Virus record (IMG/VR): IMGVR_UViG_3300016471_001002
Location: 128,001-192,000 of that record
Length of the DNA: 64,000 nt
Source of the DNA: a virus
Lineage: Duplodnaviria > Caudoviricetes
Reading direction: 5' to 3' (one strand)
A program made the position numbers and the translations under genes. Every line of letters begins with the position of its first letter. The stretch's first letter is position 1. The notes under the pieces are model-generated. The model was not told the DNA's origin. It was given only the letters and a program-made list of their open reading frames with translations, and made no database searches. Positions 29,782 through 62,539 of this stretch are shown piece after piece.

Positions 29782-29856
29782 CCGCCTGTAGGGCCGGTTG
29801 CCCTAGGAGTTCTTATAAAGCTCCGTTGCCTGGTTCAACTCCAGGCAGGCGGACCA
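29782..29856 (+). tRNA. tRNA-Ile(UAU), atypical D-arm
   Basis: acceptor CCGCCTG/CAGGCGG, loop CTTATAA, T-arm CCTGG-TTCAACT-CCAGG, encoded CCA. Confidence 0.8.
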
Positions 29857-58903: not shown

Positions 58904-58978
58904 TGGTGGGTCGCCTGTGAGTCGAACACAGTTCAGAAGGTTAAAAGCCTACTGCATCACCACTAATGCTTGCAACCC
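58904..58978 (-). tRNA. tRNA-Lys(UUU)
   Basis: GGGTTGC/GCGACCC, loop CTTTTAA, TTCGACT, CCA; A8 and U-U in anticodon stem. Confidence 0.88.
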
Positions 58979-58990
58979 ATTGATATTGTT

Positions 58991-59019
58991 AATATATCAT
59001 ACTAAGTTAAGACTTTACA
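58991..59019 (-). promoter_or_regulatory. early-type promoter for tRNA-Lys
   Basis: TGTAAA-N17-TATATT. Confidence 0.7.
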
Positions 59020-59023
59020 CGCT

Positions 59024-59695
59024 CTAGAGCTTTTTTATTTCATCCAAACACTTTCTATAGAACTTGCGTCCGATATCCTTTTCGGTAATCCAGAGATGTT
59101 CATGTTTGGATAAAAGTTTCTTTTTTGCTTCTTGCGTAGAAATATAAGTTTTCCATTTATCAGAAAGCTTATCACCAACGTAAGGAGAAGTGTATTTTAC
59201 TTCAACGATAATCTTCCCGTCAATAATGAAATCAGGTTGGTACTTAATACCTTCCCCCTCAAGATAACCCTTGAATCTTTCAATTTTTGAATTTGGATGT
59301 TGTTCGAGGTACCATTTCAAAAAGGCATACTCTAAAGCAGAGTCGCATCGAATTCCTTCATACGACGTTTTTATGCCGTATCCGATGTTTCCCTTTTCGA
59401 TTTCTTTTAATCTAGAAACTCTCCATTTTTCTAGAACAGTTGGATCGGAATGCTGATGATTGATAGCACATTGACAGGAGCAAAACTTTTTATGCTTCTT
59501 TTTTGTAGAAAATTTCTTTTCACATTGTTTACAGGTTTTTTCGTATGGGTCAAGTGTTAACGTCTTACTAACTTTTTCGTTAATCTCTTTTCTTTTAGAC
59601 TTTGTAGAAAAACCTCTCGAACATCCCTTAGAACAAAATCTTCCAGAACCATAAGAGCCATCATTGTCAGAACCGCAGTATTCGCATTGTTTCAT
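59024..59695 (-). CDS. Zn-finger plus PD-(D/E)XK homing-type endonuclease
   Basis: CEYCG, FCSKGC, CKQC, FCSCQC; DSALE, YQPDFII, VEVK; TAGTTA-N5-ATG. Confidence 0.75.
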   Translation of the reverse strand: MKQCEYCGSDNDGSYGSGRFCSKGCSRGFSTKSKRKEINEKVSKTLTLDPYEKTCKQCEKKFSTKKKHKKFCSCQCAINHQHSDPTVLEKWRVSRLKEIEKGNIGYGIKTSYEGIRCDSALEYAFLKWYLEQHPNSKIERFKGYLEGEGIKYQPDFIIDGKIIVEVKYTSPYVGDKLSDKWKTYISTQEAKKKLLSKHEHLWITEKDIGRKFYRKCLDEIKKL

Positions 59696-59953
59696 GTAAA
59701 TAACTATTGGGCTCCAACAAATCGAACCTACAAACAATCGGTTATTTTCTAAAACTTTTTTTCATCGTGCGATATATTGATATCATGCCGAGAAACAAAA
59801 AGACAGCATCGTTAAAAGCCGGGATAACCTTTCTTAGTTTCTTATCCCAACTTGCTTCAATTCAAGAAGATAAAGGGAAAAAGAAAGAAATCGATAACAC
59901 AAACAGGTTATTAAAAGCCCTAAGATATCTTCTAGGAATTGAAAGATAAACTG

Positions 59954-60190
59954 TCAATCCTCTGATGCTCGTCTTGATGCATGGATAAAAGAAATTACCA
60001 TTGCGCAGATGATATGCCATCCTAAAGAGGATCGACTAAAACTAGCCCATGGCCAATTAAAAGCCGCACCCAAAATCCAAAAACCTATTCCAAAAAATAA
60101 TCCTGCAAGAGGTGCAGTGCATCCATAAACTAATACCTTAGGATAAAACACTATCATGCAGACAACAAAAATAATCCACAAAATAGGCAT
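59954..60190 (-). CDS. small membrane protein
   Basis: three hydrophobic segments. Confidence 0.6.
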   Translation of the reverse strand: MPILWIIFVVCMIVFYPKVLVYGCTAPLAGLFFGIGFWILGAAFNWPWASFSRSSLGWHIICAMVISFIHASRRASED

Positions 60191-60210
60191 ATTGTTTTCC
60201 TAACAATATT

Positions 60211-60408
60211 TCAAAACTTTTTTTCAATTACCGTAAGAGTGTCTGGATCAACAAAATCGAAGACTTTAGGATCACCCACCTTACAAATACGAGCCTGAAT
60301 GACGTCGAGCTCATAGTTCTTGGCAATCTTTGTGATCATCCACGATCCTTCAAATCCATCGCGGGTGACAAAATCTCCTGTGATTACTCGCTTCTTCTTC
60401 TTTTCCAT
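60211..60408 (-). CDS. small KOW-like protein
   Basis: ITGDFVT; TGTAAA-N17-TATGTT promoter at 60416-60444. Confidence 0.6.
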   Translation of the reverse strand: MEKKKKRVITGDFVTRDGFEGSWMITKIAKNYELDVIQARICKVGDPKVFDFVDPDTLTVIEKKF

Positions 60409-60452
60409 GTTCCCCAACATACCACCTTGTCTATCTACTTTACACAACTTTG

Positions 60453-60526
60453 TGGGCCATCCCCGTCCTGCCCGGGGGACCTCCACTTTATCAGAGTGGC
60501 TATCTAACTAACTGATATAATGGCCC
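60453..60526 (-). tRNA. tRNA-Ile(GAU), non-canonical elbow
   Basis: GGGCCAT/ATGGCCC, TATC/GATA, CCACT-CTGATAA-AGTGG, CCCCG-GGCAGGA-CGGGG; no CCA. Confidence 0.85.
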
Positions 60527-60546
60527 TTGTATTCTTACGTTTTATC

Positions 60547-60623
60547 TGGCGGGATAGATGGGGTTCGAACCCACGACCTTCGCAGTGACAGTGCGATATT
60601 CTAACCAACTGAACTACTATCCC
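60547..60623 (-). tRNA. tRNA-Asp(GUC)
   Basis: canonical cloverleaf, G73, CCA. Confidence 0.92.
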
Positions 60624-61429
60624 AGTCTTGATATATATTTCTCATTCCACCATTTAATCTTTTCTTGTAACTGTTCAAGCGTCATTCCACATTTTTTGCC
60701 TTTGGACACATTTAAGTTGTGAACCATTAATCTACAATTTGCTGGATGAGAAATTATGCTTGGGTCTATGTTGTTTTCAAATCCATATTTTACGGATATG
60801 ATGTGATCTCTTGAAACACCGTCGAGATTATTTCCGCGATTTTTTGCAGAATACCAACCATACTTTTCTATCAAAGTAAAGTCGAATTCTTCGGGATAAT
60901 CGGCTAAATTAAACTTAAAACAACAAAGAGTTCTATAATATTTTAGTCCTGCTTTGTCAAGAAGCGGGTATCGAATCTTCGTGCTGCATTCAACTGAACA
61001 ACATTTTTGATGAGGATGCTTTGAACTAACAACAAATCCGTTATTACATCCTTGACAAATTTTCGTGATTCTTTCAGAGATTATTCTTCCAGAAAGTTTC
61101 TTTCTTACTTTTTCTTTAAAGACTTCTGATCTAGGTCCTCTACTGTTTGCACAAGACCTTGAGCAGAAATAAATGTCTCTTTCTGGATGTCTCTTTTCTC
61201 TTTCTTTAACAAAGAAGTGAACATAACAACGTTCACATGTCACATCATATTCTCTTACTTCTCCAAATTCATTTTTATAACGTTCAATGGTTTTTTGAGA
61301 ACACTTTGATGCGCCCTTGTCACCGTTTGTAAGGTTTTTATCACACCATCTTACATGATTTGCAAACACTTTTCCTTCCTCGTTTGGAAAAAAAGTGTTG
61401 CAGTACTTACACGTTCTATCTTGTCTCAT
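60617..61429 (-). CDS. Zn-finger HNH homing endonuclease
   Basis: multiple CxxC; RDHII...ANC...N.SK; TACTTA-N5-ATG. Confidence 0.8.
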   Translation of the reverse strand: MRQDRTCKYCNTFFPNEEGKVFANHVRWCDKNLTNGDKGASKCSQKTIERYKNEFGEVREYDVTCERCYVHFFVKEREKRHPERDIYFCSRSCANSRGPRSEVFKEKVRKKLSGRIISERITKICQGCNNGFVVSSKHPHQKCCSVECSTKIRYPLLDKAGLKYYRTLCCFKFNLADYPEEFDFTLIEKYGWYSAKNRGNNLDGVSRDHIISVKYGFENNIDPSIISHPANCRLMVHNLNVSKGKKCGMTLEQLQEKIKWWNEKYISRLG

Positions 61430-61473
61430 ACTAATAAGTATGGACCTGCTTTTAATCGAACCTGTTTTATTTG

Positions 61474-61545
61474 TGGAGAATCCCGGCTACGCTCCGGGCA
61501 CTGCTGCGTGCAAGGCAACTGTTTTCCTGAATAAACTAATTCCCC
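61474..61545 (-). tRNA. tRNA-Ala(UGC), non-canonical elbow
   Basis: G3-U70, A73, loop CTTGCAC, T-loop AGCGTAG; no CCA. Confidence 0.85.
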
Positions 61546-61595
61546 GATGAACTACCGGCCCTAACTCTAATAAGTATTAGTCACTTTGCGTTTTG

Positions 61596-61678
61596 TGGAA
61601 CGGGACAGATTCGAACTGCCGTAGACATACGCCAACGCGTTTACAGCGCGTCCCCTTTAGCCACTCGGGCACCGTTCC
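61596..61678 (-). tRNA. tRNA-Tyr(GUA)
   Basis: class II cloverleaf, loop CTGTAAA; no CCA. Confidence 0.9.
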
Positions 61679-61679
61679 G

Positions 61680-61755
61680 TGGAGCCACCTGCCGGAATTG
61701 CACCAGCGACCGGGACTTTACAAGGGTCCTGCTCTGCTAACTGAGCTAAGGTGGC
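61680..61755 (-). tRNA. tRNA-Thr(UGU), non-canonical elbow
   Basis: GCCACCT/AGGTGGC, loop CTTGTAA, T-loop TGCAATT, CCA. Confidence 0.87.
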
Positions 61756-61768
61756 GTAATCTATGTTG

Positions 61769-61963
61769 TCAAGGTGGTAAAATTGTTTGTCCGTCAGAGG
61801 GAGGAATTTGTTTCCATTCCTCACAATTTTCAATGTAAAGATATCTTTCTTGAACTTTTTGTATACATTGCGCAGAAGGATGTTTGATTTTTTTTTGCTT
61901 TTTAGTTGGAAAGCAAGCGCACGTTAGAGCGAGTGCATATAATAATAAAGCTTTTTTTAACAT
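61769..61963 (-). CDS. small putative lipoprotein
   Basis: signal peptide ending TCAC. Confidence 0.55.
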   Translation of the reverse strand: MLKKALLLYALALTCACFPTKKQKKIKHPSAQCIQKVQERYLYIENCEEWKQIPPSDGQTILPP

Positions 61964-62175
61964 TGCTCTCCAAATAGCACGTTAAACTCATCCTCGTACA
62001 TTTTAGAGACTCTGCCCATAAAATCTACTGATTCGATCGTGTCCATTACAATTGATTCATCTCCAATGAACATCTTGATTCGACCGCGGCTGGATACATA
62101 CACACGCAAATTATCCTTGGAGTATGAAAACTTCCAAGTCTCGGCACGATCAAGAAGAGATACGACGTTATTCAT
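61957..62175 (-). CDS. hypothetical protein
   Basis: TGTAAA-N17-TATATT promoter at 62183-62211. Confidence 0.65.
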   Translation of the reverse strand: MNNVVSLLDRAETWKFSYSKDNLRVYVSSRGRIKMFIGDESIVMDTIESVDFMGRVSKMYEDEFNVLFGEQC

Positions 62176-62213
62176 GGTTCTTAATATAAAACAATCAAGT
62201 TAAAGTTTACACT

Positions 62214-62290
62214 TGGTGACCCTACTGGGTGCTGCCCCCAGTTTTTCGCCTTGAAAGGGCGACGACTTAGCTGACGTGGTCGATAGGGCC
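62214..62290 (-). tRNA. tRNA-Glu(UUC), non-canonical elbow
   Basis: GGCCCTA/TAGGGTC, TCGCC-CTTTCAA-GGCGA, CTGGG-GGCAGCA-CCCAG, CCA. Confidence 0.85.
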
Positions 62291-62291
62291 A

Positions 62292-62365
62292 TGGTTGGGG
62301 AACTAGGATTCGAACCTAGATAAAGAGATTCAAAGTCTCTTGTCCTGCCTTTGAACGATTCCCCA
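62292..62365 (-). tRNA. tRNA-Gln(UUG)
   Basis: U1-A72, loop CTTTGAA, TTCGAAT, CCA. Confidence 0.9.
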
Positions 62366-62366
62366 G

Positions 62367-62453
62367 CGGAGAGACAGGGATTCGAACCCTGGGTACCCGT
62401 TAAGATACACAGCATTTCCAATGCTGCTCCATCGGCCTCTCGGACATCTCTCC
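62367..62453 (-). tRNA. tRNA-Ser(GGA)
   Basis: long variable arm, G73, loop TTGGAAA. Confidence 0.9.
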
Positions 62454-62460
62454 AATTTTG

Positions 62461-62539
62461 AGCGGGTGGACGGACTCGAACCGACGATGCTTTCGCGGGA
62501 GGTTGGAAACCTCCTGCCATACCACTAGGCGACACCCGC
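62461..62539 (-). tRNA. tRNA-Gly(UCC) with 12-nt variable region
   Basis: GCGGGTG/CACCCGC, U73, loop TTTCCAA, variable CGCGAAAGCATC. Confidence 0.85.

Follow-up and report, generated by a model that had tools for sequence, protein, structure and literature searches.

Covarying A18 and G55 as an alternative transfer RNA elbow in the tRNA array of a jumbo phage and in cellular genomes

Can a transfer RNA (tRNA) close its elbow without G18 and U55? This question is raised by four tRNA genes, tRNA-Ile(GAU), tRNA-Ala(UGC), tRNA-Thr(UGU) and tRNA-Glu(UUC), which lie in a 64,000-nucleotide stretch of phage DNA, here called the window, comprising bases 128001-192000 of the 211-kb IMG/VR virus record IMGVR_UViG_3300016471_001002. 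The record, estimated to be 65% complete, derives from freshwater metagenomes and belongs to a jumbo phage. In the canonical elbow residues 57 and 58 are separated by an intercalated G18, which bonds the U or pseudouridine at position 55; this residue heads a U-turn of the UNR type (N, any nucleotide; R, purine). An earlier note on this DNA, made from the sequence alone, had claimed that the four tRNAs have A18-G19 in the D-loop and G55-C56 in the T-loop, and direct reading of the genes confirmed this together with the GG and TTC of the other seven tRNAs of the window (four of four against none of seven, Fisher p = 0.003). In the phage as a whole the A18/G55 elbow is present in four of 15 tRNA genes, each of them the sole phage gene for its anticodon, and the other 11 are canonical. 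We report here that A18 and G55 covary strictly in viral and cellular tRNAs, and conclude that the four genes are probably working translational tRNAs with a second, structurally equivalent closure of the elbow.

All four genes are on the minus strand. The tRNA-Ile gene (60453..60526; D-loop AGTTAGTTA, T-loop GGCAGGA) has no stem mismatch and no encoded CCA, and its elbow residues are A18 at 60509, G19 at 60508, G54 at 60472, G55 at 60471, C56 at 60470 and G58 at 60468. The tRNA-Ala gene (61474..61545; D-loop ATTCAGGA, T-loop AGCGTAG), likewise without mismatch or encoded CCA, has A18 at 61528, G19 at 61527, A54 at 61493, G55 at 61492, C56 at 61491 and U58 at 61489. A single stem mismatch is found in tRNA-Thr (61683-61755, with CCA at 61680-61682; D-loop AGTTAGCA, T-loop TGCAATT), where A18 is at 61738, G19 at 61737, U54 at 61702, G55 at 61701, C56 at 61700 and A58 at 61698, and in tRNA-Glu (62217-62290, with CCA at 62214-62216; D-loop ACGTCAGCTA, T-loop GGCAGCA), where the mismatch is C13-A22 and the elbow residues are A18 at 62272, G19 at 62271, G54 at 62236, G55 at 62235, C56 at 62234 and G58 at 62232. 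The canonical set of G18, U54, U55 and A58 is thus replaced by A18 and G55 in all four, with 54/58 read, as previously claimed, as G/G, A/U, U/A and G/G in Ile, Ala, Thr and Glu. Each of the four has a 7-bp acceptor stem, a D-stem of 3-4 bp, anticodon and T stems of 5 bp and 7-nucleotide anticodon and T loops; U8, A14, A21, U33, A37, G53-C61, C56 and R57 are retained throughout, and the minimum free energy folds are cloverleaf or near-cloverleaf.

Identity elements were compared with the sets in PMC9976931. Ala has G1-C72, G2-C71, G3-U70 and A73; Ile has the GAU anticodon, A73 and C4-G69 and lacks C29-G41; Thr has G1-C72, C2-G71 and UGU; and Glu has UUC, A37 and a 4-nucleotide variable loop, with A-U at 11-24 and C-A at 13-22, its variable loop and 3-bp D-stem being like those of bacterial tRNA-Glu. 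The claim of intact stems and identity elements, with G3-U70 of Ala as its example, and of genes unlikely to be decayed, was therefore borne out. For Ala it should be noted that the D-loop contains AGG, so that a G18-G19 reading is also possible and is the one used by the Rfam alignment. We rejected it: in an 8-nucleotide loop it leaves no position 20, and a covariance model of variant tRNAs (R1, described below) aligns AG to 18-19 instead. A at 18 follows from the standard register of such a loop, A14-N-N-N-18-19-20-A21.

Covariation of A18 with G55 in homologues was the check that the earlier note had named as decisive. IMG/VR and the GTDB species genomes were searched with the most frequent type of D-arm that has A at position 18, and the figures that follow are among the matches listed. 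In viral contigs an 8-nucleotide loop without GG (AGTNAG-not-G-A) is accompanied by an NGC T-loop in all parsed tRNAs but one (L028, T-loop read as GTTCAAA; labels of this kind denote loci), and tRNAs with AGTNAGGNA (A17a-G18-G19) have TTC in every one. In cellular genomes G55-C56 is present in 72 of the 82 tRNAs with the same D-arm type. A wider, structure-only scan of 2.26 Mb of fetched viral and cellular loci, including neighbours outside the D-arm pattern, yielded 675 distinct tRNAs. Here GG is combined with U55-C56 in 535, AG (no GG) with G55-C56 in 100, and a D-loop end AGGA or AGGAA (A18-G19-G20-A21) with G55-C56 in six; an unambiguous G18 with G55 was found in none, A18 with U55 in ten, G18-A19 with U55-U56 (the known 19-56 exchange type) in eight and GG with C55 in seven. 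A occupies the position-18 register in 106/106 of the G55 tRNAs surveyed (Fisher p = 5e-111 for the 18/55 association, uncorrected for phylogeny), and these tRNAs span 25 anticodons and 15 amino acids and retain R57 in every case. The earlier description of the 54-58 pair as swapped applies to Ala only: across the G55 tRNAs 54:58 is U:A in 67, G:G in 23, C:C in five, A:A in four, U:G in four and A:U in three, compared with U:A in 516 and G:G in only one of the U55 tRNAs. Among 24 distinct variant tRNA-Phe genes compensatory double changes occur in 15 of 21 stem pairs, with one of 504 cells unpaired, and G55-C56 is invariant.

Other elbow types were also encountered. A second covariation links G18-A19 with U55-U56 (TTTGACT and similar), A19-U56 replacing G19-C56, at L001:10334-10408 and eight other loci. 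Two tRNAs (L036:8910 and L103:9441) combine G55-G56, in the T-loops TGGGAGT and TGGGAAT, with D-loops that lack GG (TAAAAAATA and CAGCACTCA), and may represent a further elbow variant with 19-56 reversed. Viral contigs also carry tRNA-like elements with the A18/G55 elbow: one (L058) is without an anticodon arm, another (L078) has a 4-bp/6-nucleotide anticodon arm, and those of L023, L040 and L045 have A33.

Conservation of the variant genes among related phages was analysed in syntenic but mosaic arrays of the viral contigs L001, L002, L005/L006 and L283. The Ile gene is letter-identical in L001 and L002 despite differing flanking DNA, the 66-amino-acid protein downstream of it being 100% identical in L001 and 75% in L002, and L005/L006 have a canonical Ile(GAU) gene at the syntenic place in their arrays (D-loop / T-loop AGTTGGTTA / TTCGACT). 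The Thr copy of L005/L006 differs from that of the window at D-loop positions 17 and 20 only, next to a protein that is 68% identical, and the Ala gene is also present in L001/L278 with one additional A in the D-loop. For Glu a variant allele (AG with GGCAGCA) is found in the window and L283 and a canonical allele (GG with ATCGATA) in L001, L278 and L280; no mixed form with one partner switched was seen among the compared homologues. In both Ile and Glu, then, the two partners switch together. When the Glu alleles are aligned (window 62217-62290 against L001:9801-9875), the acceptor stem, D-stem and anticodon arm are identical and all of the approximately ten differences fall in the D-loop, variable loop and T-arm, a pattern that suggests module exchange or elbow-focused selection.

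The slot that carries the variant shifts among close relatives, being Glu and Ile in the window, Gly in L001 and Thr alone in L005; L001 has a variant tRNA-Gly(UCC) (AGTGAGTA / GGCAGAG), missed by ARAGORN, whose counterpart in the window is canonical. Variants make up eight of the 62 distinct tRNAs in this phage group. A 328-kb phage (L010) also has a variant tRNA-Ile(GAU) (AGTCAGGA / AGCAAAG). The nearest tRNA-Thr genes of cultured phages are canonical GG/TTC, and their elbow differs from that of the window Thr essentially by G18A and U55G. A BLAST comparison of the Ile and Glu variants with 50,697 phage records gave partial sub-significant matches only and no cultured homologue. One viral contig (L003:1575-1620) retains no more of the variant tRNA-Ile than its 3' half, which starts on the 3' side of the anticodon loop, runs to the acceptor end and is joined to unrelated upstream DNA; the arrangement resembles a recombination or insertion scar.

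The variant elbow is not confined to phages. The cellular matches listed are mostly from the Candidate Phyla Radiation (CPR, or Patescibacteria) and DPANN archaea, with others in Omnitrophota, Planctomycetes, Elusimicrobia, Mollicutes, Bacilli and actinomycetes. A genome of Zambryskibacteria (G001), an ultra-small CPR bacterium of which 483 kb were obtained as contigs C1 and C2, was examined as an example. ARAGORN and Rfam each report 43 tRNAs in it; the sole tRNA-Phe found is a variant (AGTTAGTA / TGCAAAT), as are both CAU tRNAs and Ala(GGC). Neither program calls a tRNA-His in the 483 kb. A structure scan found a perfect-cloverleaf His(GUG) with AGCAGCA / GGCAGCA at C2:434039-434109 on the plus strand, the only tRNA-His found, and a perfect-cloverleaf Pro(GGG) with AAAAGCA / AGCATTA at C2:376325-376395 on the minus strand, missed by both programs. 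Because each is the sole gene found for its amino acid, the variant elbow of the Phe and His tRNAs most likely works in translation. We take this, together with the 18/55 covariation in homologues, as support for the functional alternative elbow proposed in the earlier note; the variant is a general natural alternative, met with repeatedly in many lineages as well as in the tRNA cassettes of phages, and is not phage-specific. Loss of TruB was considered as a precondition for the variant, since TruB_N was not detected in four of four CPR genomes tested, and was ruled out by the presence of TruB_N in five of five non-CPR genomes that carry variants. The same Zambryskibacteria genome contains four tRNAs with C55 (TCCGATT or TCCGAGT) and a normal G18-G19 (C2:104339-104409, 172869-172941, 248699-248769 and 376410-376480, within loci L250-L274), and seven more cases occur at other loci.

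Variant tRNAs are poorly visible to standard finders, as had been predicted. ARAGORN reports thirteen tRNAs in the record, nine of them within the window, including Ala (61473-61545) and Thr (61680-61755), and does not call Ile or Glu even at 80% thresholds, at which 146 "genes" are called in the record. With Rfam RF00005, Thr (52.9 bits) and Ala (41.4 bits) exceed the 29-bit gathering threshold, and Ile and Glu gave no report at E<=10 on 101-nucleotide pieces. Among the surveyed variants ARAGORN recovered five of 23 of the GGC type and one of five of the CGC type. The R1 model was built from 44 A18/G55 tRNAs of unrelated viral and cellular loci only, this phage being excluded, and recovers all four genes (Thr 73.6 bits, Ile 61.9 with E 2e-17, Ala 43.5, and Glu 27.5 with E 2e-6) and no further variant tRNA in the window. 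The structure-only cloverleaf scan, which requires the stems, U8, U33 and R37 and ignores the loops, gave no match in 419 kb of shuffled sequence. Because standard finders miss variant-elbow tRNAs, the tRNA complements of huge phages and of reduced-genome microbes are under-counted, and inferences of a "missing tRNA" may be wrong.

How A18 may be held by G55 is suggested by the analysis of T-loops by Jaeger et al. (2009; PMC2615604), in which the motif consists of a U:A-type trans Watson-Crick:Hoogsteen pair and a UNR or GNR U-turn, tRNA uses a "U-clamp" and other T-loops a "G-clamp", and A:A, C:C and G:G are tolerated in place of the U:A pair. The variant tRNAs conform fully to this scheme. 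By analogy, G55 would most likely head a GNR-type U-turn (G55-C56-R57) and hold A18 in trans; G55-C56-R57 with A18 would then make up G-N-R-A, with A18 paired to G55 as in a GNRA loop and intercalated after R57. Under this proposal G55 would demand A18 and U55 would demand G18, and the 54:58 pair would be freed to be U:A, G:G, A:A, C:C or A:U. With G19-C56, R57 and G53-C61 kept, the outer face of the elbow would be retained for the ribosome, RNase P and the CCA-adding enzyme; according to a published elbow review, the outer G19-C56 face is what the ribosome, RNase P and further partners recognize.

Variants cannot carry pseudouridine-55 or 2'-O-methylguanosine at position 18 (Gm18), since these positions are G and A, and three of the four phage variants are necessarily also without 5-methyluridine at position 54 (m5U54) or 1-methyladenosine at position 58 (m1A58), since 54 is not U and 58 is not A. 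The escape from modification that the earlier note had put forward is to this extent true, if trivially so: pseudouridine-55, Gm18 and m5U54 are impossible at G55, A18 and a 54 other than U.

Strict covariation, conservation and presence in the only Phe and His genes found in a CPR genome are the observations behind a second, working elbow, and from them we infer aminoacylation and ribosomal use in this phage. Several points weigh against this reading. The survey loci were chosen by D-arm pattern among the matches listed, so that the frequencies are biased; the geometry in which G55 clamps A18 is argued by analogy only; and tRNA-Glu has its weak points, namely a score of only 27.5 bits with R1, the C13-A22 mismatch and C15/A48. 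The confinement of the Glu differences to the elbow could mean that the elbow is under selection and that the two forms are not neutral equivalents. As to expression, four lake and river metatranscriptome runs contain parts of the region in assembled Logan contigs, and one RNA-library contig of 474 nucleotides (depth 3.6) spans 61977-62295 and with it the complete variant Glu gene, with no differences; this contig, the sole RNA support, could be DNA carry-over. Assembled contigs show neither ends nor strand, and stretches that they leave uncovered do not count as evidence.

A different account, close to the escape from host toxins or surveillance suggested in the earlier note, is that the elbow is selected in phages for counter-defence. 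A factor of the host or of a competitor that recognizes U54-U55 or G18, whether a T-loop tRNA nuclease or a surveillance tied to TruB, TrmA or TrmH, would then overlook the phage tRNAs, and the infecting phage would keep Ile, Ala, Thr and Glu tRNAs to itself. A nuclease of this kind exists in CdiA-CT E479, whose cleavage site is flanked by the conserved T and the pseudouridine (PMC9086364), and the proportion of variants in the phage group, the flipping of the variant slot among close relatives and the restriction of the Glu allele differences to D-loop, variable loop and T-arm would all fit; but chromosomal tRNAs have this elbow too, among them the sole Phe and His genes found in the CPR genome, as do tRNAs of genomes in which TruB is retained, 11 of the 15 phage tRNAs are canonical, and the 211 kb record (approximately 65% complete) yielded no gene for a nuclease, for tRNA repair or for modification. 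PolyA_pol (the CCA-adding enzyme) and TruB were not detected in that record, and the search for a T4-type RNA ligase 1 was uninformative, its control being blank. The wide occurrence of the variant in cellular genomes makes it unnecessary to invoke counter-defence peculiar to phages, and we regard such a role as possible but doubtful. A related and rather improbable extension is that the elbows of array tRNAs are under diversifying selection by a factor reading U54-U55 or G18, with A18/G55 as a resistant module shuffled by cassette exchange driven by homing endonucleases; if true, this would explain both the elbow-only Glu differences and the shifting variant slot.

It is very unlikely that the four are non-translational tRNAs, either charged but kept from EF-Tu and the ribosome or acting as decoys, primers or regulators. 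The precedent is that the best-known bacterial tRNAs without G18-G19 and U55 are the cell-wall tRNA-Gly NP1-3 (PMC13443448, PMC4574755), and the element of L058 that has no anticodon arm carries the A18/G55 elbow; the phage genes, against this, keep G19-C56, have 7-nucleotide anticodon loops with U33 and A37 and comprise four amino-acid identities, each variant is the sole phage gene for its anticodon, and for Phe and His the CPR genome yielded variant tRNAs only. That the genes are decaying or pseudo-tRNA genes with drifted loops is hardly credible: two of the four are indeed invisible to ARAGORN and Rfam, but stem pairing is complete or nearly so, the genes have their core bases and identity elements, the sequences are conserved across diverged contigs, the loop changes are strictly paired and the variant-aware model scores are high. 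Working translational tRNAs with an alternative elbow thus remain our preferred interpretation of the four genes.

The variants are part of a tRNA array on the minus strand (58904..62539), together with canonical Lys, Asp, Tyr, Gln, Ser and Gly tRNAs, which is broken up by small open reading frames and by an HNH-type endonuclease gene (60620-61429) with relatives in other huge phages. Among the compared arrays this gene lies between Asp and Ala in the window only. The arrays of related phages combine identical Ile, Tyr, Ala and Lys genes with differing Ser, Gln, Thr, Asp and Gly cassettes, and an RNA-library contig (run X17) links the Glu of the window type to the Gln of the L001 type. A search anchored on the 312-amino-acid neighbour protein found no relatives. 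Of the canonical GG/TTC tRNAs of the window, tRNA-Gly(UCC) (62461-62539) has a 12-nucleotide variable region, and a stand-alone tRNA-Ile(UAU) (29782-29856) has a 5-nucleotide D-loop.

No description of an A18/G55 exchange in tRNA was found in the open-access literature searched, although older compilations may hold one; it is unmentioned in the reviews consulted on the elbow, T-loop modifications or non-canonical tRNAs, and in the L-array paper, where the elbow is not discussed. Published reviews call pseudouridine-55 universally conserved. With U55 or pseudouridine-55 and G18 treated as near-universal, a strictly paired natural alternative, present in the only tRNAs that a genome yielded for an amino acid, shows a second solution for the elbow. 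Through it nature provides a clean test of what pseudouridine-55, T54, Gm18 and the chaperone activities of TruB and TrmA are needed for. For phage biology it provides a testable class of tRNAs which are necessarily without three common host modifications.

Some phage tRNAs evade anticodon nucleases through changes in the anticodon loop. The variants likewise differ from host tRNAs at a site which a host factor might read; here it is the elbow that is changed, the anticodon loop being normal, and a cognate nuclease is not known. With canonical bacterial and phage elongator tRNAs (RF00005) they share the 7/4/5/5 cloverleaf, U8, A14, A21, U33, R37, G19-C56, R57 and G53-C61, part of the identity elements, among them the absence of residue 47 in Glu, and the location in arrays with homing-endonuclease genes. 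They differ from the canonical G18-pseudouridine-55, G19-C56 and T54-A58 by A18, by G55 and by a 54:58 pair of G:G, A:U or U:A. The consensus T-arm loop of alphaproteobacterial transfer-messenger RNA (tmRNA; RF01849) starts with GGC and gives a weak local match of 6.9 bits to the Glu T-arm, which is a resemblance only, tmRNA being without a normal D-loop. Of the natural cases described, the staphylococcal non-proteogenic (NP) tRNA-Gly NP1-3 (PMC13443448, PMC4574755), a bacterial type which also has no G18 or U55, comes closest. These staphylococcal tRNAs, which act in cell-wall synthesis, additionally lose G19 (U19 in NP2), and their anticodon loop is shortened and their EF-Tu determinants are weak, whereas the phage variants, with G19-C56 kept, 7-nucleotide anticodon loops and four identities, do not belong to this type. 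The five-nucleotide T-loop whose second base, a G, clamps an intercalated base or ligand is shared with the GNR/G-clamp T-loops of ribosomal RNA, the thiamine pyrophosphate riboswitch and the adenosine triphosphate aptamer (PMC2615604); those lie outside tRNA, and it is within tRNA that we propose a G-clamp holding A18.

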